Shown piece after piece: positions 13,819 through 63,986 of a DNA stretch of 64,000 nucleotides; the stretch's first letter is position 1, and each line of letters opens with the position of its first letter. Below the pieces are notes generated by a model, which ran no database searches, was not told the DNA's origin, and saw only the letters and a list, made by a program, of their open reading frames with translations. This DNA comes from Vulcanimicrobiota bacterium (GTDB lineage Bacteria; Vulcanimicrobiota; Xenobia; Xenobiales; JADMJV01). The position numbers and the translations under genes are program-made. The DNA is taken from contig JAEXNA010000221.1 in assembly GCA_023447635.1 (NCBI GenBank), positions 4,063 through 68,062 on the forward strand, in the 5' to 3' direction.

Positions 13819-14655
13819 CTAGTTGTGAGCCGAACAGCAAGCGTCGCGACGCAGGATGCTATTCGGCGAATAGATAGCGGCGTCGACGTCCTGGATCGTT
13901 GCGCCGGCCAGGGTCTCGCCGGTCACGGTGCCGCTGCTATCACCGCCGCCACCCGCCAGAAGGGCCAGCAGACCGGCTCCGAACGAACCGCCCAGCGCCG
14001 GGAACAAGGAAAAGCCGGAACCGCTCGAGGCCGCGCTCGACGAAGAAGCGGACTTCTTCTTGGGCGCTTTGCCCTTGGCACCAGAGGTGGCCTTGTCAGC
14101 GGCCGGCACATGCTGCTCGGTCGAGGCATAGGCCAGGGCCAGCGAAGCGCCGTCAACGCCGGCCGGCAGTTCGCCGGCCAGCGGGTACTCGGCGGACGAA
14201 CCGTCCAGTCCCACCATCTTCGGCTTCCCCTCGATCACGCTCAGCGAGGCGCCATCGCGGTCGGTCGAGACGATGAACTCTCCGCTCTCGGCAACCGTGC
14301 TAGAGCCCGTCGTATGAATCTCGACCGGGGCGGTGGCTCGCGCCATCACGCGACCGCGGTGCAACAAGACTTCGGCGCTTTGCGAACGACCGACGACCAA
14401 CTCGCTGTTCGGGGCCATGCGTACCATGTTGCCGTTGTCGAAGGCCAGGGTCAGTCCACCCTCTCCGGTGCGCAGGGTGCTGCCTTCGGCGATCGGGCCA
14501 GCCTGCAAGCGGCTCCACGAGCCTTCCCCGGTCTGCCGCAGCGCCTGTCCGCTAACCGACTGGGCCACACAGCCGTGAGCCTCGTCGGCCGCAAACGAGA
14601 TCTGGCCCGCACAGAAGGTGGCGATGGCGATTCCTGCGATAATTCTACGATTCAT
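13819..14655 (-). CDS. FecR-domain secreted protein with Lys/Ser-rich linker and Gly-rich hydrophobic C-terminal segment (paralogue of 8645..9592)
   Basis: Signal peptide MNRRIIAGIAIATFCAGQISFA; FecR-like GSTLRTGEGGLTLAFDNGNMVRMAPNSEL; C-terminus ...SGFSLFPALGGSFGAGLLALLAGGGGDSSG.... Confidence 0.5.
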   Translation of the reverse strand: MNRRIIAGIAIATFCAGQISFAADEAHGCVAQSVSGQALRQTGEGSWSRLQAGPIAEGSTLRTGEGGLTLAFDNGNMVRMAPNSELVVGRSQSAEVLLHRGRVMARATAPVEIHTTGSSTVAESGEFIVSTDRDGASLSVIEGKPKMVGLDGSSAEYPLAGELPAGVDGASLALAYASTEQHVPAADKATSGAKGKAPKKKSASSSSAASSGSGFSLFPALGGSFGAGLLALLAGGGGDSSGTVTGETLAGATIQDVDAAIYSPNSILRRDACCSAHN

Positions 14656-49055: not shown

Positions 49056-50924
49056 ATGACGTATCGCCCTGACATCGACGGCTTAAGAGCTATCGCTGTT
49101 CTTTCTGTCCTGTTCTACCACGCCCACCTGTCGTTTCCAGGTGGGTACGTTGGTGTAGACATCTTCTTTGCGATATCGGGGTACCTCATCACCTCACGAA
49201 CTATACCTAGACTTCGCGATGGCGGGTTCTCGGTGATGGATTTTTGGGCACAAAGAATTCGCCGTCTCCTCCCTGCGCTCTCCTTTGTTACTCTTGCCAC
49301 GATAGTTCCAGCTCTTTTTTTTCACCTGCCACAGCACCTGGTGGACCTAGGTGGTGCTCTGATAACGCTGCCTTTGATGTTAGTCAACTGCTATTATTGG
49401 CGAGTGGTAAAGGCAGGGTACTTCGGTGACCCTCCCGAGATAAGACCGCTTTTACATACTTGGTCACTGGGAGTGGAGGAGCAGTTTTACATCCTTTTTC
49501 CACTGTTCCTAGTCTTGGCCTGGAGACGAGGTGGTGAAAGGACCGTATTCAAGGCGGCAGGATTCATTACCGTTATTTCGCTCCTCCTATCGGTCCCGCT
49601 GACCTATTATAAACCTGTCGCCACGTTTTTTACATTGCCGACCCGTGCTTGGGAGTTCACCCTTGGTGGACTTGTTGCACTGCTCCCCAGCCCCCAAGGA
49701 CCCAGGCTCTTGCGAGAGCTTTCCGTTTTAGGCGGCCTCGGTCTTTTGATATACTGTATGTTTTACTTTGATCACTTCACACCGTTTCCCGGAGCTTGGG
49801 CCCTCGTGCCCGTGATAGGGTCTCTCTTGATTATGAAAGGATGCGAAGGCGGAGCCACCAGTGTCGGGACCATCCTCTCCAGCAAACTGCCCGTACATAT
49901 TGGACTAATCTCGTATTCACTATACCTGTGGCACTGGCCCATTCTCGCCTATGCAGACTACTTGTTCTTCTTTCAGAATCCAGGAGGTCGGCTATTGCTG
50001 GTCACTGCGAGTATAATCGCCGGACATCTCTCTTGGCTCTACTTGGAGACCCCGCTGAGGTCTGGACGTCTCTTGCGTTCAAATGCACGGGCTCTCTCTT
50101 TCATGCTGGTCAACGCCGTTACGTTGATCGCAATCGGGTTGGTATTTACAAGCCAGGAGGGCTTTCCGGGTCGCTGGGACCCTGAGACCCTGAAGCAAAG
50201 CAACTTCAAAAATGACACCAGGACTGCACGGTCCGAACCAATCGGGGCCCTCGACGTCAATGAGTATTCGTTTATGCTTTGGGGTGATAGCCACGCCGCG
50301 CATTTCGTTCGGGCACTCGACGACGCGGCAAAACTTCAGGGCATAAAAGGTTATGTCATGACGAATGCGAGTACAGCCCCGCTTCGGCGCTGGAATAGGG
50401 TTGAAGGAACAGTACCTGACAAAGAGTGGCAAGCAACGTGGTTTGAGCAGGGAATAGCAGAAGCTAAGTCCCGGGGTATTAAGCTCATTATTCTATCCGC
50501 CTTTTGGAATAACTACGGATACTCTGACCTTGGGACGAACCTTCGTTCCGCCGTCAAGGAACTCAATGAACACGGGATGACGGTCTACGTTGTGACCGAC
50601 ATCCCTCATTTCGAGCGGCACGTTCACCGCGCTTTACTCCTCGCGAAGTTGAAGGGCGAAGACCACCTCGCGGGAGATGATGTTCTTATGACTCCTATGG
50701 AAACAACCATCGATATCAGAAAAATCGATTTCCAGGGGCTCAACGCTGAACTCATCGACACCCGTAGCATACTCGAACACGGGCCGGGCTCAGCCGTCGT
50801 GAAGGCCAGGGGCGAGATTCTCTACCGAGATGCTGACCATCTGACAGTCGAAGGCGCCCAGCACTGCCTCCCTGCCTTCCAAGGTCTATTTGACGCTCTA
50901 CTTAGGGAAAAAAAATCGAAGTGA
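49056..50924 (+). CDS. acyltransferase family 3 with C-terminal SGNH domain (OafA/OatA-like O-acetyltransferase)
   Basis: MTYRPDIDGLRAIAVLSVLFYHAHLSFPGGYVGVDIFFAISGYLITS; 10-TM N-terminal half plus ~250 aa extracytoplasmic C-terminal domain. Confidence 0.8.
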   Translation: MTYRPDIDGLRAIAVLSVLFYHAHLSFPGGYVGVDIFFAISGYLITSRTIPRLRDGGFSVMDFWAQRIRRLLPALSFVTLATIVPALFFHLPQHLVDLGGALITLPLMLVNCYYWRVVKAGYFGDPPEIRPLLHTWSLGVEEQFYILFPLFLVLAWRRGGERTVFKAAGFITVISLLLSVPLTYYKPVATFFTLPTRAWEFTLGGLVALLPSPQGPRLLRELSVLGGLGLLIYCMFYFDHFTPFPGAWALVPVIGSLLIMKGCEGGATSVGTILSSKLPVHIGLISYSLYLWHWPILAYADYLFFFQNPGGRLLLVTASIIAGHLSWLYLETPLRSGRLLRSNARALSFMLVNAVTLIAIGLVFTSQEGFPGRWDPETLKQSNFKNDTRTARSEPIGALDVNEYSFMLWGDSHAAHFVRALDDAAKLQGIKGYVMTNASTAPLRRWNRVEGTVPDKEWQATWFEQGIAEAKSRGIKLIILSAFWNNYGYSDLGTNLRSAVKELNEHGMTVYVVTDIPHFERHVHRALLLAKLKGEDHLAGDDVLMTPMETTIDIRKIDFQGLNAELIDTRSILEHGPGSAVVKARGEILYRDADHLTVEGAQHCLPAFQGLFDALLREKKSK

Positions 50925-51130
50925 TTGTAGCAAAACTAGAGCCTTCTAGGCATCGACCCTGTCGCGTACTTGGTCGACGTGCTTCAGCGCGTTTCGACGC
51001 CCCCCGCCAGCGAGACCGAGCTCGTGGCTTGGCGTCTACGGAAACTAACCTTTGCTCACCGATCCAACGGGGTCGGCTCTCTCGAAGCCCTAGATGCCAG
51101 CGGCCTGGGCTCTAGCAGCACAGCGTTAGA

Positions 51131-52318
51131 CTAAAAGAACCAGCGGGCCAAGCTCAGGAGATTAAATATGCCCATGCCACCCAAGAATCCGTTTTGTTGC
51201 TCTTTGGTCGGAACATACACCAGATCGCCATCGTAAACAGGAACGGCCGCATCAGCTTTACCCTTCTCGAAGTACTCTTTCAGATTGTACTCCTCTACCT
51301 TGTCACGGTTTGCGGTAACATCAGCAGCGCGAACAACGATGACCTTCTCGATCTTCGACCCGGCAGCAATCCTTGGGGGCAAGATATCAATAAGAGTCTC
51401 GTTTCCTCTAAGCGGCACCGGGCCCGGCTGACTTACAGCACCAAGAACGACGGCCTGCCGAGCAGGTACGACCAAGATATCTCCTTCTTTCAGGTTCTGA
51501 GCCTCCTCCGGCAGCGGCTTTGACGGGGTAGCACTGAGGTCCAGAATCAACGGCTCTGGTAGGGTTGCTCGGATCAGCCGGACCCGGGTCAACGAGGCCT
51601 CCTCCTTCGCACCACCGGCCGCCAGCAGCGCCTGGCGTGGGTCGCCATGAACTCTGCTCACAGCATAAACTCCAGGCTTGGTAACTTCGCCAGTGACACT
51701 GACAGGGGAGCCTGGAAGGACGTACAGCACATCGCCAGACTTCACTTCAGTCAGACCGCCACCAGCTGAAGCCTGAAGGGACACTTCCGTGCGCTCACTG
51801 CCACGCAGCAGCATCGCGGTATCCTTATCGGCTTTCTCGGTAAGTCCACCTGCACGAGCAATTACATCTAGCACCGTCGCTCCCAGTCCCACCTCGAAGG
51901 TGCCTTGCTGGTTAGCCTCTCCGAGAACTGCGACCTGGTGTCTCGCGACCTGGCGCAGACCTAACTTGAACTCTGGCTTCTTCAGTTCTTTGGCTAACCG
52001 CTTCTTAAGATCGGCTCGCAAGTCGCCCAGGGTCCGGTTCGAGGCCTTGACCTCGCCGACCAACGGATGGAAGAAAAAGCCATCTACACGCACCGTGTAA
52101 AGACTCTCCATCTCTGGCAAGGACGAAATATGAAATACTATCTCGTCACCAGCTCTGAGAATATGCTCTTCGCTAAGCAGCGGAACCAGAGCGCCACCAC
52201 TACCGGGAGACGCTGGCGGCGCCACCGGGGGCGAGGCTGGGGCCTGATTCTGAGCCATGGCTTGCGCCCCAAGAAGCAGAATCAAGAACGCGTGAAAGAG
52301 AAGCCGTGCGGTAGACAT
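51131..52318 (-). CDS. polysaccharide export protein (Wza/GumB family)
   Basis: Signal peptide, PES-like region (LRAGDEIVFHISSLPEMESLYTVRVDGFFFHPLVGEVKASNRTLGDLRADL) followed by SLBB-like repeats. Confidence 0.7.
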   Translation of the reverse strand: MSTARLLFHAFLILLLGAQAMAQNQAPASPPVAPPASPGSGGALVPLLSEEHILRAGDEIVFHISSLPEMESLYTVRVDGFFFHPLVGEVKASNRTLGDLRADLKKRLAKELKKPEFKLGLRQVARHQVAVLGEANQQGTFEVGLGATVLDVIARAGGLTEKADKDTAMLLRGSERTEVSLQASAGGGLTEVKSGDVLYVLPGSPVSVTGEVTKPGVYAVSRVHGDPRQALLAAGGAKEEASLTRVRLIRATLPEPLILDLSATPSKPLPEEAQNLKEGDILVVPARQAVVLGAVSQPGPVPLRGNETLIDILPPRIAAGSKIEKVIVVRAADVTANRDKVEEYNLKEYFEKGKADAAVPVYDGDLVYVPTKEQQNGFLGGMGIFNLLSLARWFF

Positions 52319-52461
52319 ATCCAGCTAAAATCCCCCGCGATAATGCCAATGTCCTGCAAATCGCGGTGCGGTCCAGGGGCTGCGAAAATAACCATCCTCA
52401 GCCCACCGTCAGATGCGACCAACCAGGAGAGCGCCACGAAGACGCTAACCACCTCGCGACC

Positions 52462-53142
52462 ATGAATCGGAACAAGGTAAGCCCTCTTCTCTCCATCTCT
52501 ACAGCCCTCGCTCTGACCCTGTCGCTGGAGGGCTGCGGCGATTCCTTCCCGGATCAGGTCTCCGGCCAGCCCGCCGGTGCCGTTCAGGCCATCTCCGACC
52601 CCATCGTCGACATCCTTCGCGACGGGGTCGATGAGTCGCTCGAAGGTGCTGCTCCCGCGGTCGCGGCAGAATATCTCCTAACCTTCAGCGAAACGAGCAA
52701 CGCGGCCACGACTCGCTTCACCCGTAAGCCCTCCAGCGAAATTATCGCCATTCTGCAGCCGAACGCTGCCACCCGCACGTCGTTTCGCCTGAACATCCTC
52801 AACAAGAGTCGGGCCGGCGCCGCCGACTTCCCGTTCCTGGACCTGCAGTTCGGACAAGGCAACTCCCAGCCCCTCGCCGTGGGAACGCGGCTGTCGGCGA
52901 ACTCTAACAGCAGCGGACCGCGAGCCCAGCTGGTCTACGGCGAAACGTTCCAGCCGCCCAGACTCAAGCTGTTCGTCTCCCAGTCAGGCCAGATCACAGT
53001 CACAGGACTCACACCCGGCGCGGGCCAGTCCGGGTCGATCCGGCTGCGCTTCGACAACGTGGTGATGACTCCCCGGGCCAGCGGACCCAACACCGCAAGC
53101 GGCAGCTTTACCGTGAACGGCGAGGCCAGCTTCACCTTCTAG
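52462..53142 (+). CDS. hypothetical lipoprotein
   Basis: MNRNKVSPLLSISTALALTLSLEGCG lipobox. Confidence 0.4.
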   Translation: MNRNKVSPLLSISTALALTLSLEGCGDSFPDQVSGQPAGAVQAISDPIVDILRDGVDESLEGAAPAVAAEYLLTFSETSNAATTRFTRKPSSEIIAILQPNAATRTSFRLNILNKSRAGAADFPFLDLQFGQGNSQPLAVGTRLSANSNSSGPRAQLVYGETFQPPRLKLFVSQSGQITVTGLTPGAGQSGSIRLRFDNVVMTPRASGPNTASGSFTVNGEASFTF

Positions 53143-53170
53143 CCATCCGACCCCGTTCTTGCAGAGAAAA

Positions 53171-53207
53171 GTTTCAGCGCGATCACCTGTAACGCTGCCA
53201 GCTTTTC
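53171..53207 (-). CRISPR. isolated degenerate copy of the 37-bp CRISPR-like repeat
   Basis: GTTTCAGCGCGATCACCTGTAACGCTGCCAGCTTTTC vs consensus GTTTCAACGCGATCACCTGCAACATTGCACCCACTCC: first 24 nt nearly identical, then diverges. Confidence 0.3.
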
Positions 53208-53358
53208 AGGCACAACCGCATCCGCAATGTCATTTGACTCCACGACAACCGCCTCAGGCTCCCAGACGGAGCGACACGAAATACTCTACAGAGACAACTA
53301 AATACTCCACAGCCAGCAGGATGGGTACCTCTTTTAGCGACACTCCCAGTAATCTTTT

Positions 53359-54129
53359 GTGGGGGTATGCATGGCATTACGATCTTTTCTTTTGACTTTT
53401 CTCCTGGGTGTGTCCGCGCTGGCGGCGCCTCTTTCCAACGGGAATTTTGAGCAAGGCAACCTGTCTGGCTGGCAATCAGTGGGAAGGACTGTTGTCGCAT
53501 TTTCAACGGCGGTCTCTAATCCGGGTCTATACTCGGCCGTGCTCTCGACGGACGAAACGATGGGTAACGTACAGGGCGTAGACTTCGACGACATCGAGAC
53601 GGCCCTGGGCCTGACGCCAGGAACCGTCCTAAGCCTGGGCGGCTACAATGCGACGTTCGGGTCAGCGATCTACCGGTCGGTGACCGTCTTGGCCGGCGAG
53701 GCCATCACGTTCGATTCTAGATTTGTGTCGGACGAGCCGGATGGCCCTACAACGCCATATAATGACTTCTCCTTCTTCAGCGTTTCCGGAGGCGGGGCCC
53801 CTGCTCATGTGCAGTTCCTCGGTGACGCCCAGGCGGCATCTTCGATCAACGGGCCAGCATTCCACGGATTTGATCGCAGTACCAACTCTGCCAACGCCTC
53901 CTACACCTTCGCCAACAGCGGGACGTACACGATCGGGTTTGGAGTCTCGAACGTAGAGGACAACTCCGTCGGCTCGGCCCTCGTGGTGGACAACATCGCG
54001 CTCAACGTCCAAAACCCGCAATCCGTGCCCGAGATCGACGCGAGCAGCGCGACGCTGCCTCTCGCGCTCATCTGCTTGATGATGCTTGTCGTTTCCGACC
54101 GCAAGCACAGGGCGACTCGTCTGGCCTAG
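53359..54129 (+). CDS. VPEID-CTERM sorting-signal surface protein (paralogue of 2394..3227)
   Basis: Signal peptide (MALRSFLLTFLLGVSALA); N-terminal NGNFEQGNLSGWQ motif shared with 2394..3227; C-terminus SVPEIDASSATLPLALICLMMLVVSDRKHR. Confidence 0.7.
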   Translation: MGVCMALRSFLLTFLLGVSALAAPLSNGNFEQGNLSGWQSVGRTVVAFSTAVSNPGLYSAVLSTDETMGNVQGVDFDDIETALGLTPGTVLSLGGYNATFGSAIYRSVTVLAGEAITFDSRFVSDEPDGPTTPYNDFSFFSVSGGGAPAHVQFLGDAQAASSINGPAFHGFDRSTNSANASYTFANSGTYTIGFGVSNVEDNSVGSALVVDNIALNVQNPQSVPEIDASSATLPLALICLMMLVVSDRKHRATRLA

Positions 54130-54166
54130 AGCCCCGAACCGCTACCAATTTTTTGAGACAGAACGC

Positions 54167-54201
54167 AAATCGACGTGCCCCAAGGCACGTCGATTTCTTT
54201 T
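54167..54201 (+). terminator. rho-independent terminator (13-bp perfect stem, 4-nt loop, T-tract)
   Basis: AAATCGACGTGCC-ccaa-GGCACGTCGATTT-CTTTT, 38 nt after the VPEID-protein stop. Confidence 0.6.
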
Positions 54202-54282
54202 AGGAACCTATCAAGCGCTTCCACCCGAGACCTTCTCGAGCACCAGAGAGTCGGCCCTGGCCTCGGCTCCGAGGTGCACAGC

Positions 54283-54774
54283 CTACCAGCTTCCGTAGCC
54301 TTCCTGATAGCCGTCGAGCTCGAAGTTGCTATTCTGATAGCCGCCGAAGCCGTCTCCGCCAAAGAACACCTGGCTCGCTCCCCAGTTGGCGTTCCGCCCC
54401 TGCGACACATTCACGAAGGGGTCGAAGCTCGGCGCGAACGTGGCCGGCCCCATCGAGCGTCCCAGCTGGGAAAGCCTTGAGATGTCCGAATCCATCGGAA
54501 ACGCCGGCCCGAAGGCGTCGGCTCCAGCCTGCATCAGTCGCATCTGCGCCGTCAGCTGCTCGAACTGCTGCTGCTGCACCGCCAACATGGTGCACATCTG
54601 ACCCGTGCGCATCTGCTCTTGCTGCGCCGTCAGCCGCTCCATGGTCTGGCGCTGAATGGCCATCTGCAGACGGAAATCCTGAACGGTGGGGGCGGTGGTG
54701 GTCTTCATATCTGTGAACTCTCCTCGTGCGATTTCCCCCATTCTACTCGCCTCCGCGACCACAATCAGTGACAC
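54283..54774 (-). CDS. hypothetical Gln-rich protein (start possibly at MKTTT, ~54708)
   Basis: ORF only; Gln/Met-rich helical region, Gly/aromatic-rich C-terminus; no known motif. Confidence 0.3.
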   Translation of the reverse strand: MSLIVVAEASRMGEIARGEFTDMKTTTAPTVQDFRLQMAIQRQTMERLTAQQEQMRTGQMCTMLAVQQQQFEQLTAQMRLMQAGADAFGPAFPMDSDISRLSQLGRSMGPATFAPSFDPFVNVSQGRNANWGASQVFFGGDGFGGYQNSNFELDGYQEGYGSW

Positions 54775-54819
54775 CTGGCACCGAATCAGGAGACCCTCGT
54801 CACCCGCGCCAACACCAAA

Positions 54820-54980
54820 GTTTCAACGCGATCACCTGCAACATTACACCCATTCCCGCCGCAACGCCTCGCCGGGCCAATGTTTCAACGCGATCACCTG
54901 CAACATTGCACCCACTCCCGCCGCAACGCCTCGCCGAGCCAATGTTTCAACGCGATCACCTGCAACATTGCACCCACTCC
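54820..54980 (-). CRISPR. CRISPR-like mini-array A: 3 x 37-bp repeats with two 25-nt near-identical pseudo-spacers
   Basis: Repeats at 54820-54856, 54882-54918, 54944-54980. Spacers cgccgcaacgcctcgccgGgccaat / ...cgAgccaat differ by 1 nt. On the minus strand the repeat reads GGAGTGGGTGCAATGTTGCAGGTGATCGCGTTGAAAC (ends GTTGAAAC like type I-C/I-G repeats). Confidence 0.55.
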
Positions 54981-55048
54981 AACCGCAGCCCCGCCGGCCG
55001 TCCCTCAACCGGCAACTAGGCCGGGCTCGCCTCGCCCTCCGATAACAG

Positions 55049-55965
55049 ATGGTCTATAATGACGGCATGTCCTCGCACGGTCTTCTCAACGACGTTCTAT
55101 TCAAGATCGTCTTCGGTGGTCGCCAGAGCGAGCCCGTGCTCACGGCGCTCCTCAACGCTCTGCTCGGCTACACGGGCGACGAAAGCATCGTCTCGCTGAC
55201 TATCGCCAACCCCAATCTCGAACGCGAGCACCTAACGGATAAAGGAGCCGTGCTTGACCTTAAGGCGGTCGACGCCGCGGGACGGTGTTCAACATCGAGG
55301 TCCAGCTCGAGCCCGGCGGTCCCCTCGACTATCACCCCAAGCGAACGATCTTCTACACCGCTAAACTGCTCTCCGCACAGATGGAACAAGGTGTCAGCTA
55401 TGCGAATCTGGCCAAGACTGTGCACATCTCGCTGCTCGACTTTCTCCTGTTCAAAGATTCCGAAAAGCTACACAGCGTCTTCGCACTTCGCGAGGCCGAA
55501 CTCGGGTTTCTTCTTTCGGACGTGCTCGAGCTGCACTACATCGAGCTGCCAAAATTCTCTCTGACGAAGCCCCAGGAGCTTCACACCCCATTCGAGCGGT
55601 GGCTTCACATCCTCCGATTCTCCGTTCTCTATCTCGCCCCCGACTCCGACCCCCTGCCCGCTACACTCCAACAGGAAGAAGGTATCTCCATGGCCATAGA
55701 ATCTCTACGGAAAGCTTACGCCCGCGACGATGTCCGCGAGCTGATCGAAGCCCGCGAAAAAGCTCGAATGGATTACGGCAGTGCCATCGCTGAAGCGACC
55801 AGACAGGGCCGCCAAGAGGGCCGTCAAGAGGGACGTCAAGAGGGACGCCAAGAAGGCCACGTCGATGTGGCCCGCAAGATGCTGGCGCTGGGCCTTGACC
55901 GCGCAACCATCCTCCAAACCACCGGGCTAACCGAAGCCCAGCTGGCCGAACTCGCCAAAGGGTAA
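55049..55965 (+). pseudogene. Rpn/YhgA-like PD-(D/E)XK nuclease ('transposase_31' family), disrupted by a -1 frameshift near 55280
   Basis: Frame 1 HGLLNDVLFKIVFG...LDLKAVDAAGR | frame 2 VFNIEVQLEPGGPLDYHPKRTIFYTAKLL...HYIELPKF...QGRQEGRQEGRQEGRQEG...ILQTTGLTEAQLAELAKG. The two halves together form a complete family member; the junction falls in the conserved D..G..NIE(M/V)Q motif. Confidence 0.7.
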
Positions 55966-56149
55966 CTCCCGACGACCGCCCTCTAAAAGGGAAGCCTCGA
56001 GCGGCACAAAGCTTGCTCGAGGCTTCCAGGAGTGGTAGCCAGAGGCGCACCTCTTCAACGGGGCCACATGCTCGCAGAGCACGGGAACGTGGGCGACGAA
56101 CACCCGGGTGGACACCAGGCCACAACCCGATTTTCTCTCCTATCCCTCT

Positions 56150-57934
56150 TCACGCCTGCGCCCCCGTCGCCGCCCTCGGCAGCGGAAACAGCATCGCCGC
56201 CGCCAGCCGACGCGGCTCTAACCCGTCCAGCCCGTCGGCCTCGAGCTTGTCTCCGCGCCCAGCCAAATCGGCCTCGACCAGCTTCAAAGCGAGCTCCCCC
56301 TCGCCGCGACAGAGCGCCTCGACCACCGGCAACGGGGCCGGTCGCCGGTCTCGGCGCCTGTTTCCAAAGGCCGCCTTCAGCTTACGATAGCTCGCCGGCA
56401 AGAAGGCAAACTGGGGCGGAGGCGGCGCTGGCGACGCCGCCTGGTCGACAACCAGACACAGGGCGTGCAGCAGATCCTCCATCCGCCCTTCGTCCACCTC
56501 GCCCCGCAGAAAGGCCAGCAGATGCTCGGGCTTAGCTGTGTGACAGCCCCAGAACGGGTCGTTGAAAAGCACGATCCCCGCCCGGTTCGGTCGGCGGGGC
56601 ACCTTCCCGCTGCTCCACATCCGATAGCGCAACAGCCGCACCATCTTTTCGCACAGGTCGCGCCCCTGAAAACTCTCCATCTGCGGCCTCAGCCACAGCG
56701 CTCTGTGCAGCCGCGTTCCTAGCGAGGCCAGCGAGAGCGCCAGGTCGAATTCGGCGTTCCCGTCCCGCGGCTCGACCCCCCAGCGAGAACTCAACCCCGG
56801 AGCCTCCGTCGCATGAAGCCTGAGCTTCCCGATCTCTTCCAGCACTCGGCTGCCCGAAGGCCCAGACCCCCAGGACTCTGCTGTCCGTAGCCAGCGAAAA
56901 AACTCCACCCGCTCATCCTCTAGCCAGCCTCCCAGCCGCCCCAGGTCGAACTGCGACTCGGCGGTCACCGAAGCGAGCGCCAGCGTCAGGTCGCCGTGCC
57001 TCACGGCCAGGGCAAAACGTTGATGACCCGCCCCCTGTCCAGCTTCCGCGAACGTCTTGGGCTCACTCCACAGCGGAACCACCACGTCGTACTTCGCCTC
57101 TCCGGGCAGCAGAGCGTTCCGATGCCCTTCCAGGCTAGAACGAACCCGAGGCAGGCCCGACACCAAACCCTCCATGGCCAGCACTAGACCCCAGGGGTTA
57201 GAACGCGCCATCACCTTCCCGTCGTCAGCCCCGGCATAAGAGCTCGCCGCTCGAGGATCGAAAAAGCCTTGCACAGCGTCTCTCATCTGGTCCGTCTCTT
57301 CCTCGAAAAGGGCGGCTCTCAGCAGCTCGGCGGCCCGTCTTTCTGGACGTCGCTCGGCCAGCAGCAGCCATCGCAGCGACTCCATGAAGATGGAGGAAAA
57401 CTCCATTTTCCCGTCCATCCCGCCGGCCAGCGCCAGAGGAGAGAACAGGACCTCGCCATCCATCTCGTCGGCCACGGTGGCCAGCCACGGGTCGTGGGGC
57501 CATTGCTCCAGCAGGCGCCGGACCAGGTCTCTCTTCTCCCACCCCTCCGGCTTCTCGTCCACCACCGCCTGGGCCAGGGCGAACCGCTGCCGGTAGGGCT
57601 CGAAACGCAGCTCTTCACTCGCCTCGATAGCGTAACGAGGATGCTCCACCAGCCGCCGCTGAAACCCGCTGGTCTTGTTCCACGGACTGACGATCGGCGT
57701 CGGCACATACTCCTCGACCAGAAAGCGCACCAACGCCTGTTGGTCCAGCGTCGAGCTCAACCAGAAATGCCTGTTCCGCCACCAGCCCCGCGCCTCCGGG
57801 TCTCGCTGCTCCGCCACCAGCCGCAACAGCCCCAGCCCGCCCAGAGCACAGGCATAAGGCTCGACCCGCAGCCCGACCAGCGCTATTTTAGCCGGCTCAG
57901 AGAGCACCAATCCCCCCTCGCCAGCCGCGCCCAC
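56150..57934 (-). CDS. csx17: type I-G (I-U) CRISPR-associated large subunit Csx17/Cas8u-like
   Basis: N-terminal ...LGGLGLLRLVAEQRDPEARGWW...VEEYVPTPIVSPWNKTSGF recalled as Csx17 N-terminal signature; ~590 aa; flanked by repeats. Confidence 0.55.
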   Translation of the reverse strand: MGAAGEGGLVLSEPAKIALVGLRVEPYACALGGLGLLRLVAEQRDPEARGWWRNRHFWLSSTLDQQALVRFLVEEYVPTPIVSPWNKTSGFQRRLVEHPRYAIEASEELRFEPYRQRFALAQAVVDEKPEGWEKRDLVRRLLEQWPHDPWLATVADEMDGEVLFSPLALAGGMDGKMEFSSIFMESLRWLLLAERRPERRAAELLRAALFEEETDQMRDAVQGFFDPRAASSYAGADDGKVMARSNPWGLVLAMEGLVSGLPRVRSSLEGHRNALLPGEAKYDVVVPLWSEPKTFAEAGQGAGHQRFALAVRHGDLTLALASVTAESQFDLGRLGGWLEDERVEFFRWLRTAESWGSGPSGSRVLEEIGKLRLHATEAPGLSSRWGVEPRDGNAEFDLALSLASLGTRLHRALWLRPQMESFQGRDLCEKMVRLLRYRMWSSGKVPRRPNRAGIVLFNDPFWGCHTAKPEHLLAFLRGEVDEGRMEDLLHALCLVVDQAASPAPPPPQFAFLPASYRKLKAAFGNRRRDRRPAPLPVVEALCRGEGELALKLVEADLAGRGDKLEADGLDGLEPRRLAAAMLFPLPRAATGAQA

Positions 57935-57940
57935 ACCAAA

Positions 57941-58039
57941 GTTTCAACGCGATCACCTGCAACGTTGCACCCACTCCAGCTGCAACACCCACCCAACCCA
58001 AAGTTTCAACGGGATCACCTGCAACGTTACACCCATTCC
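57941..58039 (-). CRISPR. CRISPR-like mini-array B: 2 x 37-bp repeats with one 25-nt pseudo-spacer
   Basis: Repeats 57941-57977 and 58003-58039 (variants ...CAACGTTGCACCCACTCC / ...CAACGGGATC...); spacer agctgcaacacccacccaacccaaa resembles the repeat core (CTGCAAC...ACCCAC). Confidence 0.5.
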
Positions 58040-58099
58040 GGCTGCAACACCCACTTCCGGTAGCTCCCGCAGCGAGCGCAAGACCTTCCCGGCCGGACA

Positions 58100-58966
58100 T
58101 TATACGGTGCCTAGCCGTGGCAATAGAGAGGTGAAAAAACCTGGCGACCACATCGCCGTCGCATCCAGGTCTTTTAAGAACGGCACCACGTCCTCCCGAG
58201 CCGCGTCGACATTGAGACTTTCGAACCGCTCTGCCAGAGCTGCCTTCAGGTCGTTCTCGGACATCGTCTCTTTACTGGTCCACCAACCCGATTGCCTTAA
58301 TCGCATCTCGAGGTGAGACAGATGACACGGGACACCTCGACCCACGTACCAGACGAAATCGAAGTAATCTCTCCCTTTCACTCGTGTCTTCCAGCCTCGA
58401 TGAAGAATGGCGTGCAGTTTCCCGGCAAAAAGGTCGGGCAGTCGATAGGTCAGCACGCCGAAGGGAAGTGGCTGCAGCAGAGTTTTGACCTCTGTCTCAA
58501 AGCCTGGCGGTGGGTCCGAGTCGACCTCGACCTTGACGGTCATTACGCGGGTCCGTGGAACTCGCCTGGCGATCTCGGGAGGAATGGCGATTTTGACGAG
58601 ATGTGTCAAAGTGCCCGCTTTGATAAAGGCGGACTCGATCGGTGTCGCAACCTTCTTGGACTTCATCTCGACAGAAACCTCGAAGCCGAAGGAGCTAAGC
58701 TCCTCGGCAATAGCCTTGAGATAGGCCGCTAATTTGAAATCCTGATCGGCTTGAAGCAATGAGAAGTCGAGATCCTCAGAGAAGCGCTGAAGACCGTAAA
58801 GGATGCGAAGAGCGCTTCCGCCGTAGAAAGCGGCGTGCTCGAAGAACTTCGCTCGCCAGAGAGCCAGCAAGGCCATCTCCTGGATAATCTCCTTAAGCGC
58901 ATTTTCGTGGTCCTGAGCCGTGCGGCAGTTATAGGTCGACAGCATCTGCAGTATCGCGGGGTTCAT
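58100..58966 (-). CDS. abiEii: AbiEii/AbiGii-family nucleotidyltransferase toxin (type IV TA)
   Basis: ALKEIIQEMALLALWRAKFFEHAAFYGGSALRILYGLQRFSEDLDFSL: canonical DUF1814/AbiEii N-terminus. Confidence 0.8.
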   Translation of the reverse strand: MNPAILQMLSTYNCRTAQDHENALKEIIQEMALLALWRAKFFEHAAFYGGSALRILYGLQRFSEDLDFSLLQADQDFKLAAYLKAIAEELSSFGFEVSVEMKSKKVATPIESAFIKAGTLTHLVKIAIPPEIARRVPRTRVMTVKVEVDSDPPPGFETEVKTLLQPLPFGVLTYRLPDLFAGKLHAILHRGWKTRVKGRDYFDFVWYVGRGVPCHLSHLEMRLRQSGWWTSKETMSENDLKAALAERFESLNVDAAREDVVPFLKDLDATAMWSPGFFTSLLPRLGTV

Positions 58967-59595
58967 AGCGCCAACCTCAAGACATCCAATCGAGCGTCCT
59001 TATAAGCCGCCACAAGCTTTGATAACATCTTCTTGCTGAGACCTTTCCATTGCTCTGGCTCCATCCTCAGGTCGTCAGATAGGAACTGGTGCACCGAGCG
59101 TCGGTCCGTCAGCGTGATCGCGGGACGAAGGACAATGTAGTCGCACAAAGCTTTCTCGGGCGTGGCCATTAGCACAGGATGACGTGGGTCGAGCATCACC
59201 CTGTCGACTCCGTGGGGATATCGGGTGGGGGACAGGTAACGGTAGCGAAAACGGCCCACCGGGGTCGAAAAAAGCTTGTTCCTCTTCGGCGTAACGCTCG
59301 TCAACTCTACCACGCGCTCCGGAATGAGGCCGTAATAGCTCAAGGCGTATTCCAGAGACAAGCAGGATGGACCATAGATCAGGTTGGCTAGCACCTCCAG
59401 GCAAACCGGCTCTCGGTTTAGCATAGGCGGGAAGACGTACAGGCCTTTCTTGACCCGGGTGATCGTACCAGCCTTGATAAGCTCGTGAATCTTCTGTCGA
59501 GGCGCCTTGTGCCTCGATAAAGCGTGCCGCAGAGTCAAGTAGTCGAACTCCTCGCTCGGTATAGCTTGGCGTAAAGTCAATGCATCCGTTATCAC
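58963..59595 (-). CDS. abiEi: AbiEi-family antitoxin / transcriptional regulator
   Basis: 210 aa, N-terminal wHTH-like (LIKAGTITRVKKGLYVF); 4-nt overlap with abiEii, the typical operon arrangement. Confidence 0.7.
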   Translation of the reverse strand: MITDALTLRQAIPSEEFDYLTLRHALSRHKAPRQKIHELIKAGTITRVKKGLYVFPPMLNREPVCLEVLANLIYGPSCLSLEYALSYYGLIPERVVELTSVTPKRNKLFSTPVGRFRYRYLSPTRYPHGVDRVMLDPRHPVLMATPEKALCDYIVLRPAITLTDRRSVHQFLSDDLRMEPEQWKGLSKKMLSKLVAAYKDARLDVLRLAL

Positions 59596-59627
59596 ACTCT
59601 TATTCTAAGGGAAAACGAAAACCTGGA

Positions 59628-59658
59628 CCAGTATGTAAGATTTTTTCTAACATACTGG
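59628..59658 (-). promoter_or_regulatory. inverted repeat in abiEi upstream region (candidate AbiEi autoregulatory operator)
   Basis: CCAGTATGT-aagattttttcta-ACATACTGG, 33-63 nt upstream of the abiEi start. Confidence 0.3.
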
Positions 59659-59700
59659 TCACTCCCACCCCGACTGCACCACGAACCGACTCAGCCCAAA

Positions 59701-59737
59701 GTTTCAACGCGATCATCTGCAACATTGCACCCACTCC
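59701..59737 (-). CRISPR. single 37-bp CRISPR-like repeat C between abiE module and csb2
   Basis: GTTTCAACGCGATCATCTGCAACATTGCACCCACTCC (1 mismatch to consensus). Confidence 0.5.
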
Positions 59738-59745
59738 CCCCACAA

Positions 59746-61002
59746 CTAGCCCGGCTCCGGCACGAACCGGCCCATCCCAAAGTGACAGCTCGCCCCCAAA
59801 CACAGCGGACCCGAAATCTCATAAGGGAAACTCAGCCGAAGCCAGCTCGCCAGCCCTGGCGGCGCCTCCCCCTGCCCTCTCCGCACCTGGAACTTCCGCC
59901 CCTCGACCAACTCCACCTCAGGCTCCGGCAGCCCCCGCAGCAAGCACTCCCGGCGCACCTGGTCCTCCACCCCGTCCTTCCCCCGCCGGGGATGGCGCGA
60001 GCACAGAAACGGCGTCAGCGAGCGCCACACCCTTCCCCGCCCCAGCCCGCCGGGCGAGCTATCCGCGGGCTTCAGCTCCGTCCCGCCCACCCAACGCAAG
60101 GTCGACAGCAGCGCCAGGTCCGAAGGGCAGAACCCCTCCTCCGCCCACAGCAACAGCCGCGAAGGCCTGGACCGAGAGGCACAGCCGTCGGGCAGCACGT
60201 GCAGATGTCGATGCCCGTCCGCCCGCGCCTCCCCCTCCACCTTCCCCAGCAGTGTCGCCGAGACATCGCCCAACCCCAGCACCGCCCGCCGCACCTCGTG
60301 CGCCAGCGTCAAAGCCTCTTCCCAGCGCGGAACCTTCCCGCCCAGCCGATAGACCAAAAGCCTCGTACGCACGGGCTTCACCATCGTCACCGGCTCCGCC
60401 AACCAGCGATAGATCACCCAGCGCGAACCCGGAGGGCGATTGCGGCGCTCCTTGCGCATCTGCCCCGTCCCCAGCATCAACTGCTCGACCGTCACCGAAG
60501 GCAGCGGGCAGAACACGGCCGCGACCTCATCGCACTCCTCCCCTGCCGCCAGCGGACGCGCCTGCACTGAAAACTCTCCCGGCACCCGCCGCACCCGGGC
60601 CAGCGACTCTGACCGGCCAAAGTACGCCAGCCCCTCTAGCAGGCCGTCCAGCAAGCGCACCTCCTCCGAGCCCAGCTCGAGCTCCGGCCACAGGAACACT
60701 AGCGGCTCGTCCACCGCCACGAAGCTGTCCAGCCCCAGCTTCAGCTCATCCTCCACGGGCAGATAGCGACGCAGATGCCCCACCGTCGAAGGCGGCAGAT
60801 GAAAACAGGGCAGACTCTCGGCCAAGCGCAGGACCAGCTCCTCGAACCCGGCCGGCTCCCCTTGCAGCATCCAACTCGCGCACAGCGCCCGCAGCAGACG
60901 CCAGGGCGAAGGCGGCCACTCGACCTGACCCTCGTTGACGTGCCGACCCCAGGGCGTCGCGTGGTAGCGCCCCAGGGGGAGCCTAACCTCGATGGCCAGC
61001 AT
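59746..61002 (-). CDS. csb2: type I-G (I-U) Cas5/Cas6 fusion protein Csb2-like
   Basis: N-terminus MLAIEVRLPLGRYHATPWGRHVNEGQVEWPPSPWRLLRAL matches the recalled Csb2 signature (GRYHATPWG...EWPPSPWRL). Confidence 0.6.
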   Translation of the reverse strand: MLAIEVRLPLGRYHATPWGRHVNEGQVEWPPSPWRLLRALCASWMLQGEPAGFEELVLRLAESLPCFHLPPSTVGHLRRYLPVEDELKLGLDSFVAVDEPLVFLWPELELGSEEVRLLDGLLEGLAYFGRSESLARVRRVPGEFSVQARPLAAGEECDEVAAVFCPLPSVTVEQLMLGTGQMRKERRNRPPGSRWVIYRWLAEPVTMVKPVRTRLLVYRLGGKVPRWEEALTLAHEVRRAVLGLGDVSATLLGKVEGEARADGHRHLHVLPDGCASRSRPSRLLLWAEEGFCPSDLALLSTLRWVGGTELKPADSSPGGLGRGRVWRSLTPFLCSRHPRRGKDGVEDQVRRECLLRGLPEPEVELVEGRKFQVRRGQGEAPPGLASWLRLSFPYEISGPLCLGASCHFGMGRFVPEPG

Positions 61003-61004
61003 AG

Positions 61005-61883
61005 CTACATCTTCAGCACGGTGCGCTCGCCCAGTTCGCCCGTCTCTCGAAGGTGGCGAATGCTCCCACGCAGGCGCTCTTCGAGGGCCGGAAGGTCAGG
61101 CAAAGGTTCACTGGTCCCCACCACCTTCAGGTCGCAACCCGCGCGCAGGTGCAGCCCATCGCGTAGAAACCGCAGGACCTTCAGCACGGCCAGGTCGGTC
61201 AGCATCTGCTGGGCGGGGTTGGAGAAACCGTAGCGGCGCAGCCGATACAGGTCCAGATGAAAGTAGGCTGTGATCTGGTTGGAGACATACTCGCGCCGCC
61301 CATACAGGATCGCCCCTTTCCCCTCCTCGGCAGAGCCGCTCTCGTCGAGCGGGTCGAAACGAACGCCCTTGCTATCCACCGCGCTCACGTCGCGAGCGTC
61401 GATCGACGCCGTCAGCAGTCGGGGCAGCCCCGGAGCCGCCCGAAACGACGGCATAAACACCCCGTGCAGCACGCTGTTCGGATCAAGCCTCAACAGCGCG
61501 CCGGCCAGAGCGTTCCGCGCCTTCTGCCCCTTGAGCTTCCCGACCGCCTTCTCGAACGTCTTCACCAGCAGAGGGTACAGATAGGGACTCCCCGCCCGGG
61601 CCGGCTGGGTCACCGAGTCGACCAGCCCGTGCTCGGGATGCTCCAGAGCCAGGAACGGCAACTCCTCCAGCGGAGGCAGATAGCGATCGGCCGCCTCGTC
61701 CCACACCACCGCCTCCAACCGATTGGCCATCGAAGGCACGCTGTCGACGATCAGATTCGTCCGCCCCTCGGGGGAGAAATACTCCGCCGGCCCAACGTCA
61801 GCAAACCTCGCCGGCGCGAAGCGATCGCCCAACAAAGGCTGCAGAGCCACCTCCAACATCCAACGCGCAGGTCCAGCATCCAT
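61005..61883 (-). CDS. csb1: type I-G (I-U) Cas7-like Csb1
   Basis: N-terminus ...LQPLLGDRFAPARFADVGPAEY matches the recalled Csb1 pattern (L.PL.GDRFQPTGF.DLGPA.Y); directly upstream of csb2 with 4-nt overlap. Confidence 0.55.
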   Translation of the reverse strand: MDAGPARWMLEVALQPLLGDRFAPARFADVGPAEYFSPEGRTNLIVDSVPSMANRLEAVVWDEAADRYLPPLEELPFLALEHPEHGLVDSVTQPARAGSPYLYPLLVKTFEKAVGKLKGQKARNALAGALLRLDPNSVLHGVFMPSFRAAPGLPRLLTASIDARDVSAVDSKGVRFDPLDESGSAEEGKGAILYGRREYVSNQITAYFHLDLYRLRRYGFSNPAQQMLTDLAVLKVLRFLRDGLHLRAGCDLKVVGTSEPLPDLPALEERLRGSIRHLRETGELGERTVLKM

Positions 61884-61928
61884 CCCCGACCGTTCGCCCC
61901 CGACTCCTCGCGACCCCGCCGGGGAAGT

Positions 61929-63986
61929 CTAAGGAATCACCGCGTAAGCGGAAGCAGCCTCCTGCGTAGCGAGTTCCTCGACGAAGGTCAGCCTTCCTGA
62001 AGTCTCGCGCCGGTAGATTTTGATGCCCCTTCCTGCCCCATCCTGTCTCGTCGCGTAGTAGAACCGACCCGACGACTCGAGAACCCCCTCTTCGCCCGTA
62101 GTGCCCGTGAGTTCGTTATCGATCTGGGTCCCGCTGGTGCCGTCCGAGCTCAACTCGACGGCGAAGACACGAGCGAGACCGACGGTGTAGAGATATCGGA
62201 AGTCCGGACTGAAGTCTAACCTCTGCTGGTAGAATGAGGATATCGCCGCGCTGCCGTAGGGCGTCAGTTGCCCACCCGGGCCGATCGCCCACCATCGAAT
62301 CATCCTGTCGTCCGAAGCAATGGCGAAAAGCTGATCCAGTTTGGGATGAGCGCGTGGCGCCATAGCGCCGTTCAGGGTTATGCCACTCTCGTCACTGACT
62401 CGGCTCAATCGCCCCTCAGAATCGATAGCTAGAGTATGAAGCTTACTGTTCGTTCGGTCGGTGACAAACAAGAACCGGCCATCTCTAGAAACATCCAGGT
62501 CTCTCGGCCGTCCTCCCACATTGATAGGCCCCCTGCTTGGGTTGTTCGCGGTCAGACGACCGTTGGCTCCGATAATAAACGATCCTATTGTCGCGGTCTG
62601 GCTGTTGGCGACGAACAGATAGCGGCCCGTCGGGTCGATCGTCAGATGGTCGGGTAAGGTGTCAGATCTTATGCCTTGTTGCAGGTTGAGTGTTCCTCCC
62701 GGTTCGATCCGAAAAGTCACGATCCGATGAAGTATGGGGTCAGGAACGTAGATGTAACGCCCTGAGGGATGAACCGCGAGATCGTGGGGCGAATCTGCCG
62801 ACGCGTGCGACGTCAACAGAGTGAGTCGCCCGGTCCCATCATAGCTGTAAACCGTCAGGTCGCCACTTTGTCCTGACTGTGCCGGAGTCCGCGTGTCGCC
62901 AGCGAACAAGTAGGCGCCAGCGTAGAGAGTGGTCGAAGTGTTCATGGCGCCCAGCGCTGCCGAGACGGTAATCCTGCTGTTGTAGCCCGTTGGAGTATCC
63001 GTCGCCAGCCTCGCTACGCCGGGATCCTCTGCAAACCCGACCTTGGCGCTCGACGAACTCCAGCTCACCCTGTCAGTAAGGTCTACCTCCGAACCGTCGG
63101 TCTGGATCCCCATCGCCGTGTACTGTCGGAACGAGCCAGGCGCGGACATCGCATCCTGGGGCAGAATCTTCAGGCTCACCAGCCTCGCCGGCTCGACCAC
63201 TACAGCGACTTCTTGCGAGAACCCGCCGTAGGAAACCGTCACCGTGGCGTTCCCCTCGGCCACTCCCGTCAACACGCCACGAACACTTCCCGTAGTCGAA
63301 ACCGTAAGCACGCTGGTGTCTGACGAAAGGTAAGACGCCTCGTTGGTCACCTCCAGAATCGTGTCCGGCCCGTGCAGAGCGTAGACGGTAAGCTGCCCCG
63401 AGACACCCTTGGGAAACGACAACGTCACATCCGACGAAGGGGACAGCTCCAGCCCGGTCTGCGGCTCGATTCCCACCTCGACAGGCAGCACAACCATCCG
63501 TCCCTGGAACGTCCCCTGCACCGAAGTCGACCCCTCGGCCACACCCGTCACCTTGCCCAAAGCGTCGATCTCGGCGATCTCCGAATCCAGCGAAGTCCAG
63601 GTCACGTCGGATGTCACGTTATAGAAACTTCCATCGCTGTAAGCCGCCGTGGCAACCAGAGTCTGGCTGGTCCCCTTTGGCAGTTCCAGCTGCACCATAC
63701 CCACGGTCAGCCCGGTCACCGTCGCGTCCCCCACCCCAACCTCCACCGTGGTCTCCTGCCCTCCGAAGCTCACGGTGATCGTGGTGTTACCCGCCGCGAG
63801 GGCCCGAATCTGCCCACGCTCTCCCAGGGTGGTGACAGTGGCGACCGAGGGGGCGCTGGACTCGTAGAGCGCCTGGTCGGTCACCTCAAGCTCGGAATCA
63901 TCGCTATAGGTGGCCGTCACGACCAGGGAACGCCTCAGCCCTGGCAGCAGCCGCAGCTCGGTGACATCCACCGAGAGCTCCGTCAC
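61929..63986 (-). CDS. large secreted protein: N-terminal Big_2-like Ig domains plus C-terminal lactonase-type 7-bladed beta-propeller; may extend beyond window end
   Basis: Repeated ...SSDTSVLTVSTTGSVRGVLTGVAEGNATVTVSYGG... Ig-like units; C-terminal ...HDLAVHPSGRYIYVPD...IDPTGRYLFVANSQTATIGSF... (3-carboxymuconate cyclase / 6-phosphogluconolactonase-like). Confidence 0.45.
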   Translation of the reverse strand: MTELSVDVTELRLLPGLRRSLVVTATYSDDSELEVTDQALYESSAPSVATVTTLGERGQIRALAAGNTTITVSFGGQETTVEVGVGDATVTGLTVGMVQLELPKGTSQTLVATAAYSDGSFYNVTSDVTWTSLDSEIAEIDALGKVTGVAEGSTSVQGTFQGRMVVLPVEVGIEPQTGLELSPSSDVTLSFPKGVSGQLTVYALHGPDTILEVTNEASYLSSDTSVLTVSTTGSVRGVLTGVAEGNATVTVSYGGFSQEVAVVVEPARLVSLKILPQDAMSAPGSFRQYTAMGIQTDGSEVDLTDRVSWSSSSAKVGFAEDPGVARLATDTPTGYNSRITVSAALGAMNTSTTLYAGAYLFAGDTRTPAQSGQSGDLTVYSYDGTGRLTLLTSHASADSPHDLAVHPSGRYIYVPDPILHRIVTFRIEPGGTLNLQQGIRSDTLPDHLTIDPTGRYLFVANSQTATIGSFIIGANGRLTANNPSRGPINVGGRPRDLDVSRDGRFLFVTDRTNSKLHTLAIDSEGRLSRVSDESGITLNGAMAPRAHPKLDQLFAIASDDRMIRWWAIGPGGQLTPYGSAAISSFYQQRLDFSPDFRYLYTVGLARVFAVELSSDGTSGTQIDNELTGTTGEEGVLESSGRFYYATRQDGAGRGIKIYRRETSGRLTFVEELATQEAASAYAVIP

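Follow-up and report, generated by a model that had tools for sequence, protein, structure and literature searches.

How does an AbiE toxin-antitoxin (TA) gene pair come to lie between two subunit genes of a CRISPR effector, bounded on both sides by repeats? The arrangement is found in a 64,000-nucleotide (nt) stretch of a Vulcanimicrobiota bacterium (contig JAEXNA010000221.1, positions 4,063 to 68,062), here called the window, in which abiEi and abiEii separate csb2, their upstream neighbor, from cas8g, their downstream neighbor. The original prediction, made from the letters of the window, had left two readings side by side, an abortive-infection or addiction module that stabilizes a defense island, or a cassette captured at a repeat. 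The second is favored here, and a related locus holds a different defense gene pair in the same position. The AbiE pair is probably an autonomous, horizontally acquired type IV TA cargo in a variable, repeat-bounded slot of a type I-G-like cas operon that lacks Cas3, a reading to which we assign a probability of roughly 0.7.

The AbiE pair and the csb2-cas8g junction

The toxin gene abiEii (58100-58966, (-) strand) is intact and encodes a predicted nucleotidyltransferase of 288 amino acids (aa), in which FYGGSALRILYGLQRFSEDLDF is present. The gene for the antitoxin and transcriptional regulator, abiEi (58963-59595, (-)), encodes 210 aa, or 191 aa in a version also given by gene callers. The stop codon of abiEi and the start codon of abiEii share 4 nt (ATGA), and the two genes lie on the strand of the flanking cas genes, as had been stated at the outset. 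Profile searches bore out the naming of the pair as a canonical AbiEii toxin with its AbiEi antitoxin. AbiEii matched Pfam PF08843 with an E value of 2.7e-30 (106.5 bits, cut-off 22.5) over profile positions 3-229 of 238, and the PADLOC AbiEii model with 5e-105. AbiEi matched the PADLOC AbiEi model over residues 16-207 (4.5e-63) and Pfam AbiEi_4 with 28.1 bits, above the 25-bit cut-off; its match to the NCBIfam TAA_AbiEi equivalog (1.5e-12, 47.6 bits) fell under the model cut-off of 150. Single-sequence searches of the PDB with AbiEii and AbiEi returned no meaningful match.

All columns that are invariant in 14 homologues (59-70% identity) are retained in AbiEii, including G49 G50, S63 E64 D65 and K183 R190 K197 G198 R199 D200 D203, and D67, in a near-invariant column, is also kept. 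We take these columns to be those of the published motifs GG[ST]...SxDxD and K...R...KGRDxxD. The AbiEii family is very large, with ~8000 scored matches at an E value of 1e-30 or better and thousands of at least 60% identity, and the nearest non-identical homologue shares 71% identity. By these comparisons the AbiE proteins appear to be ordinary members of their family, with nothing unusual in them. In that family AbiEii is a nucleotidyltransferase, AbiEi neutralizes the toxin and represses the operon, and autoregulation by AbiEi at an operator is documented (PMC7725324).

An inverted repeat with 15-nt arms and a 5-nt spacer is located 30-65 nt upstream of abiEi (59626-59660, (-)); the arms are 93% complementary and the hairpin has a z-score of -4.9. 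The motif CCAGTAtGTtAGA-N5-7-TCTaACaTACTGG recurs upstream of abiEi in two loci of unrelated genomic context, L054 (AbiEii 71% identical) and L055 (AbiEii 67%, two copies of the motif). Because the inverted repeat is conserved in AbiE loci of unrelated contexts, it is the probable AbiEi operator and the left part of an AbiE cassette that would carry its own operator. In a terminator scan of 54600-62000, where terminator-like sites occurred at chance level, the hairpin narrowly failed the terminator rule. It might also terminate transcripts of csb1-csb2, but an operator is the likelier role, given that other AbiE loci conserve it. A sigma-70 promoter scan of the same interval found no promoter-like sites.

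The pair is enclosed by repeat units of 62 nt, one (unit C) on the csb2 side and two (B2 and B1) on the cas8g side. Whether orthologous loci lack the insert, a check proposed with the original prediction, could be answered from two relatives in which csb2 and cas8g are directly adjacent. In L031 (Csb1 73%, Csb2 71% and Cas8g 56% identical) csb2 ends in a 4-nt overlap with the start of cas8g, and in L033 (Csb2 58%, Cas8g 48%) the two genes abut; neither has a unit between them. Since csb2 and cas8g are contiguous in both loci, the order csb1-csb2-cas8g is ancestral for the lineage. The comparison indicates that the window has an extra 1.8-kb stretch, which runs from unit C to unit B1, and that AbiE is an insertion. 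The GC content of the AbiE genes is 0.54-0.57, compared to 0.64-0.71 for csb2 and cas8g, within a range of 0.53-0.71 across 52-64 kb of the window. The same arrangement, with AbiE inside the cas genes, is found in independent assemblies of three samples (ENA ERZ27269162, ENA ERZ24927784 and Logan SRR13366722), two of which differ by 4 mismatches in 11.7 kb, and it is therefore not an assembly artifact.

Two further relatives, recovered from one sample, suggest that the slot is variable. In L032 (Csb1 93%, Csb2 87% identical) the csb2 stop is followed at once by two units, with which the contig ends. The start of L035 falls within a unit, which shares a 29-nt overlap with the end of L032, and the contig continues with PDC-M02A, PDC-M02B, a 46-nt remnant of the csb2 tail, a remnant of the 5' end of a gene of the Rpn family, two units, and cas8g. 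PDC-M02A (DUF4365; PADLOC 1.8e-76) and PDC-M02B (9.9e-144), at 148-1829 of L035, are a candidate phage-defense pair, and thus the unit-bounded position upstream of cas8g holds a different two-gene defense candidate there. In the window the first unit after csb2, unit C, belongs to one type with L032a and L035-X1. The first 37 nt of unit B1 are identical to the second unit of L032, and B1 is the closest window unit to L035-X2 (52/62 nt), which precedes cas8g as B1 does in the window. Because the unit types are positionally homologous, these comparisons suggest an ancestral arrangement csb2-U1-U2-cas8g into which cargo was placed.

The 62-nt units, the cas genes and their surroundings

Seven copies of the 62-nt unit are present in the window, all within 53155-59746 and all in one orientation, that of the cas strand; positions 1-53000 contain none, and 0 are expected by chance. 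Unit C (59685-59746, (-)) stands alone; its first base is the last of the csb2 stop codon, and its end lies 89 nt upstream of abiEi. Units B2 and B1 (57925-58048, (-)) are in tandem (Tandem Repeats Finder period 62, 92% matches), begin 51 nt past the stop of abiEii, and 17 nt separate their end from the likely cas8g start. A further three, A3, A2 and A1, stand in tandem at 54804-54989 ((-)) between a frameshifted PDDEXK_2/Rpn-family gene and orf163; the unit bounds other gene blocks of the region too. Repeat comparison found a degenerate copy at 53155-53216 ((-)). Beyond the end of the window, in L001, a 19.7-kb locus from the extended source contig, one further full unit and one 5'-truncated unit lie beside an insertion sequence (IS). 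All units are 79-93% identical, and those that flank AbiE are 79-85% identical to one another.

Each unit consists of a 46-nt core ending GTTGAAAC and then 16 nt that are a copy of the csb2 3' end; the sequence from 8 nt before the core end begins GUUGAAAC. The units resemble CRISPR repeats in being direct repeats beside cas genes, on the cas strand, with the GTTGAAAC core end. I-G repeats end TTGAAGC, in canonical related loci ATTGAAGC or GTTGAAGC, and only the last 8 nt are alike to the unit. An I-G repeat has 36 nt, with a 7-bp hairpin, then 4 nt, then an 8-nt CRISPR RNA (crRNA) handle (PMC9638904). The period of the units is 62 nt, compared to 72-73 nt for I-G arrays, and the whole 62 nt are conserved; the 25 nt between cores share WTTGG...GTTGCRGC, with ~11 nt that vary. 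The stretches between units include no unique spacer. The units have no hairpin of the I-G type, their folds on both strands being no better than those of shuffles (z about -1), and an Rfam search of 52500-62000 at E values up to 5 returned nothing relevant and no CRISPR-DR family. The units are no more than loosely CRISPR-like and are not a CRISPR array, because they enclose no unique spacer and part of the unit comes from the csb2 3' end. Of the original picture of CRISPR-like repeats flanking AbiE, the flanking by units on both sides was upheld, with the caveat that the units do not form an array.

JGI metagenome contigs and viral contigs were scanned with a degenerate 22-mer of the unit core. 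The metagenome contigs gave 17 single 22-mer matches with no likeness outside them, which were set aside as chance or an unrelated conserved gene; the viral contigs gave no matches.

The 16 nt past the unit core (TTTGGGnTGGGnCGGT) are a copy of the csb2 3' end (TTTGGGATGGGCCGGT, which codes for FGMGR). Following unit C, that copy extends to the last 32 nt of csb2 (59661-59700, (-)), made up of the 3' tail of the unit and the next ~16 nt, and then passes into a degenerate unit start. It matches csb2 at 25/32 nt from the FGMGRF codons onward, and 0/2000 shuffles matched as well. Because 16-32 nt of each unit match the csb2 3' end, part of the unit descends from csb2 coding sequence. Copies of this gene end are also found beside inserted blocks elsewhere. 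In L035 the 46-nt csb2 remnant borders the inserted block. In L036 (Csb2 42%) the last 57 nt of csb2 (13859-13915) are duplicated 7.4 kb downstream, at 21330-21386 (77% identity), and the block bounded by the duplicate contains a histidine kinase, PDC-M38A/B fragments, a 398-aa protein and an AbiEii-like gene. The copies in L036 and in the window share their first codons, FGMG. The conserved 3' end of csb2 thus appears to recur as a junction for inserted defense genes.

Three cas genes flank the insertion. csb1 (cas7g; 61005-61883, (-)) encodes 292 aa and matched Pfam Cas_GSU0053 (3.4e-25) and NCBIfam TIGR02570 (65 bits, cut-off 38). csb2 (59746-61002, (-)), a cas5/cas6 fusion (cas5/6g) of 418 aa, matched NCBIfam TIGR02165 (1.2e-42; 147 bits, cut-off 45) and PADLOC Cas56g (1.7e-97). 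The third, cas8g/csx17 (56150-57934, or 57907, (-)), is a short form of 585-594 aa that matched NCBIfam TIGR04113 (4.6e-67; 227 bits, cut-off 150) and PADLOC Cas8g (1.2e-67). The open reading frames (ORFs) of nine canonical I-G loci, including the verified Cas3g, Cas4 and Cas1 of L010, served as probes for missing cas genes. Against the 64-kb window and L001, these probes matched only cas8g, csb1 and csb2, with no cas3g and no Cas4/Cas1 homologue; Cas2 (96 aa) was under the query length cut-off, and no separate Cas2 search was made. No CRISPR array was found in the window or L001, and none within 10 kb of the cas module. The gene order of the window lineage is csb1-csb2-cas8g, compared to cas8g-csb1-csb2 in canonical loci. 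The claim that AbiE lies inside a cas gene string held for its place between csb2 and cas8g; the string itself is a Cas3-less, re-ordered type I-G derivative without the adaptation genes cas4/cas1. A scan of a genome collection with Csb2 returned only relatives of ~30% identity (local segments up to 49%), all from canonical I-G loci; at that identity they were rejected as orthologues and served as the reference for canonical repeats and for cas3 and cas1.

The cas genes are under purifying selection, with nonsynonymous to synonymous substitution ratios (dN/dS) of 0.18-0.40, and the locus is therefore live rather than debris. The C-terminal histidine of Csb2 (H407, CHFGMGRF) is invariant in an alignment with canonical Csb2 proteins. 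It probably corresponds to the catalytic H503, which has been defined experimentally in the I-G Csb2 (PMC9638904). Because the genes are under purifying selection and this histidine is retained, the Cas effector is probably still functional. Three more distant Cas3-less relatives (L034, L036 and L057) have intact genes in the order cas8g-csb1-csb2 and no cas3, cas1 or array. Cas8g is short in the window and in these three loci, at 573-617 aa compared to 720-810 aa in canonical loci. All four modules lie amid defense genes (Gabija-like, GmrSD, PDC-M38, AbiEii-like), and the L057 trio is flanked by Gabija-like genes and GmrSD. The cas trios of these loci reside in defense islands. The csb2 gene of L032 (1982-3240) reads in one frame for residues 1-316 and in another for 323-418, owing to a frameshift or an assembly error.

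The PDDEXK_2/Rpn-family gene beside units A3-A1 (55049-55965, (+)) is frameshifted into ORFs 55049-55564 and 55285-55965 and carries tandem copies of a 12-nt repeat (55805-55858), which encode (QEGR)n. The 5'-end remnant of this gene adjoins units in L035 as well (1960-2000), and the adjacency of gene and units therefore predates the split of the two lineages. On the other side of the A units, 29 nt downstream of A1, starts orf163 (54283-54774, (-)), which encodes a Gln-rich protein of 163 aa with no family match. The IS in L001 (183-1840, about window-equivalent 65970-67620) has a DUF772/DDE_Tnp_1 transposase with an inserted helix-turn-helix and abuts a unit that lacks its 5' half; it probably inserted into a unit cluster. 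Upstream of csb1 lies a gene for a large Big_2/lactonase-repeat protein (61929-63986, (-)). Its counterpart in L032 (3-1079) is only ~30% identical, though Csb1 is 93% identical, and in L031 no gene but one unit is found there, 70 nt upstream of csb1; the upstream cas flank is thus variable too. The region 49056-54129 resembles an exopolysaccharide/PEP-CTERM-type cluster, with an acyltransferase_3-SGNH protein, a polysaccharide export protein, and a protein whose match to the VPEID-CTERM sorting domain is weak and below the cut-off. The defense region therefore borders housekeeping-type surface genes.

The favored explanation and its alternatives

Under the cargo reading, the cassette would comprise the operator-like inverted repeat, abiEi and abiEii, placed at the csb2-cas8g junction. 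The units and the duplicated csb2 tail would be recombination substrates or scars, and recombination between units, or anchored on the conserved csb2 3' end, would move two-gene defense cassettes in and out. As in its family, AbiEii would act as a nucleotidyltransferase that blocks translation, probably through tRNA (PMC7725324), and AbiEi would restrain AbiEii and repress the operon at the inverted repeat. Infection would upset the balance of toxin and antitoxin, and the resulting growth arrest of infected cells would abort the infection. Any stabilization of the surrounding locus would be a by-product of the TA pair and not a designed link to Cascade; a search for targets of pseudo-spacers (the 25 nt between cores) within the locus gave no evidence of functional coupling between AbiE and Cascade. 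The idea of an addiction module that stabilizes the island lacks specific support, as none of the pseudo-spacers matches the abiE promoter above chance.

Several observations weigh against this explanation. The synonymous divergence (dS) between the window and L035 is 0.89 for cas8g, but that between the window and L032 is 0.25 for csb1/csb2. The first 50 residues of Cas8g are 92% identical between the window and L035, and the remainder 40-65%. Either L032 and L035 belong to different strains or cas8g has a recombination history of its own, and the link between the two contigs consists only of the 29-nt overlap inside a repeat. A precomputed Pfam annotation of called genes lists no recombinase or integrase in the 19.7 kb of L001, where the only candidate for a recombination enzyme is the frameshifted PDDEXK_2/Rpn gene. 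The original prediction had proposed a check for target-site-duplication-like repeat halves at the two boundaries; the units that flank AbiE, at 79-85% identity, are not a fresh target duplication, and local alignments of the cassette junctions to the unit scored too low to claim one. No second copy of the AbiE cassette with its units was found, the nearest AbiEii (71%) lying in other contexts, and all relatives are short metagenomic contigs.

The least improbable alternative, though still unlikely, is that the units act as standalone repeats or mini-arrays that yield crRNA-like RNAs, with which the Cas3-less Cascade represses abiE or cas8g. If Cascade were lost or inhibited, the toxin would be freed, which would either make the cas locus addictive or provide an anti-anti-CRISPR abortive response. 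The units end GTTGAAAC, like the 8-nt I-G handle ATTGAAGC/GTTGAAGC and on the same strand (PMC9638904), and their position by csb2 and cas8g is conserved in L032 and L035. Csb2 retains the invariant C-terminal histidine that is likely the catalytic H503 (PMC9638904), a Cascade without Cas3 can only bind, which would suit regulation, and TA cargo by mini-arrays upstream of the large-subunit gene is a published pattern (PMC10120712). However, the 25-nt "spacers" are conserved parts of the unit and not distinct guides, and the best matches of these pseudo-spacers within the locus are the csb2 tail and other units. No match to the abiE or cas8g promoter regions rose above chance, the best-scoring ones being equalled by 8-21/100 shuffles and the others by 71-90/100, although such a computation cannot exclude short seed matches. 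The candidate targets are flanked by AAC or CAC and not by the TTN protospacer-adjacent motif reported for I-G. The units also lack the 7-bp hairpin, 4 nt before the handle, that Csb2 recognizes (fold z about -1), and they have no Rfam CRISPR-DR match; moreover, AbiE has a conserved operator-like element of its own.

More broadly, the units may be working parts of the locus, either crRNA-like guides that hold protein TA cargo (AbiE; PDC-M02) or attachment sites at which cassettes are swapped at the csb2 3' end, a possibility that we judge improbable. Should the units turn out to be transcribed and to serve the Cas3-less Cascade, protein toxins under CRISPR control, as well as the role of Cas3-less type I-G effectors, could be studied in this locus as a tractable model. 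As guides, they would make the locus a protein-level counterpart of CreTA, with an addictive locus or abortive infection upon inhibition of Cascade. As attachment sites, they would make it a locus that collects and swaps defense cassettes at the csb2 3' end.

Less probable again is an integron-like cassette array, in which the units, or the csb2 tail plus unit, are attachment sites of a dedicated recombinase that shuffles defense cassettes. The units all share one orientation and bound successive gene blocks over ~13 kb, and the slot is filled by different cassettes from one relative to another. In three loci the inserted blocks are bordered by csb2-tail copies, which start at FGMG in the window and L036 and resemble the attL/attR duplication at a gene 3' end. 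A gene or remnant of the PDDEXK_2/Rpn "recombination-promoting nuclease" family adjoins the unit cluster in the window and in L035. Yet that gene is frameshifted, no integrase or transposase accompanies the array, and the sole transposase belongs to the IS located where the contig ends. Neither attC-like symmetry nor a stable fold of the single strand is seen in the units (the RYYYAAC/GTTRRRY core sites having had only a visual check), and the JGI metagenome and viral contigs gave only the chance 22-mer matches to the unit. Gene orientation within the blocks is mixed, 1-3 units stand at each junction, and the units are 79-93% identical; homologous recombination and decay therefore fit better than an active site-specific system.

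Least probable of all is that the units are remains of a genuine I-G array of a degenerating system, broken by insertions including AbiE: homologues of cas3, cas1 and cas4 were not found (Cas2 was below the query length cut-off), the units have an I-G-like 3' end, one unit pair in L001 is spaced 73 nt as in I-G arrays, and a pseudogene and an IS are nearby, but none of the unit pairs has a unique spacer between its members, the "spacers" of the 73-nt pair being homologous as well, part of each unit derives from csb2 coding sequence, all three cas genes are intact with purifying selection acting on them, and L034, L036 and L057 share the reduced state with intact cas8g-csb1-csb2, which therefore is an established variant and not recent decay.

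Comparison with known systems

The AbiE pair itself resembles the known type IV TA systems of Streptococcus agalactiae and Serratia, and the MenAT relatives in Mycobacterium, in its antitoxin-first, overlapping two-gene operon. It shares with them the DUF1814/AbiEii toxin with invariant motif residues, the N-terminal winged-helix AbiEi (AbiEi_4) and the upstream inverted repeat (PMC7725324). The only difference is the location between two Cascade subunit genes. AbiE itself adds nothing new; as an arrangement, the locus is one more instance of a cas-operon hot spot that holds TA cargo, here with units that carry part of csb2.

Compared to canonical type I-G loci (cas3g-cas8g-csb1-csb2-cas2-cas4/1 with an array of 36-nt repeats, e.g. 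L010), the window has homologous Cas8g, Csb1 and Csb2, the C-terminal histidine of Csb2 is kept, and the units end like I-G repeats. It differs in lacking cas3, cas4/1 and the array, in the order csb1-csb2-cas8g, in a Cas8g of 585 aa instead of 720-810 aa, and in a repeat period of 62 nt instead of 72-73 nt, with no hairpin. Integrons differ from the locus on two counts: no integrase family is present in the precomputed Pfam annotation of L001, and the units have no stable fold. CreTA, the Cascade-repressed RNA TA system of type I-B/I-F cas operons, is likewise a TA between cas genes flanked by degenerate repeats, and such placement could make cas genes hard to lose. However, CreT and CreA are small RNAs, the antitoxin being a crRNA-like guide, whereas both partners in the window are proteins with their own operator-like element, and the pseudo-spacer search found no guide-target relation in the window locus.

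The closest published pattern is that of type I-D loci, in which TA cargo occupies gene-shuffling hot spots between mini-arrays and cas10d, with empty relatives (Shmakov et al. 2023, PMC10120712). In the pattern described there, Cascade is directed by mini-arrays within type I loci to repress cas8 or TA genes carried as cargo (PMC10120712). The window is similar in having a TA pair in a cas operon of type I, immediately upstream of the large-subunit gene and beside repeat-like elements, with relatives that hold other cargo (L035) or are empty (L031, L033) and with conserved positions of the repeat elements (L032, L035). It differs in being an I-G derivative without cas3, cas4/cas1 or an array, in units that flank the cargo on both sides, and in 62-nt units whose conserved "spacers" are partly copied from csb2 and have no detectable match to a cargo promoter. 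A pattern known mainly from type I-D is thus extended to a type I-G derivative without Cas3 and adaptation. The locus is a clean natural example of defense cargo swapped inside a cas operon at repeat-like elements, and its related lineages offer the empty, AbiE-filled and PDC-M02-filled states of the slot.

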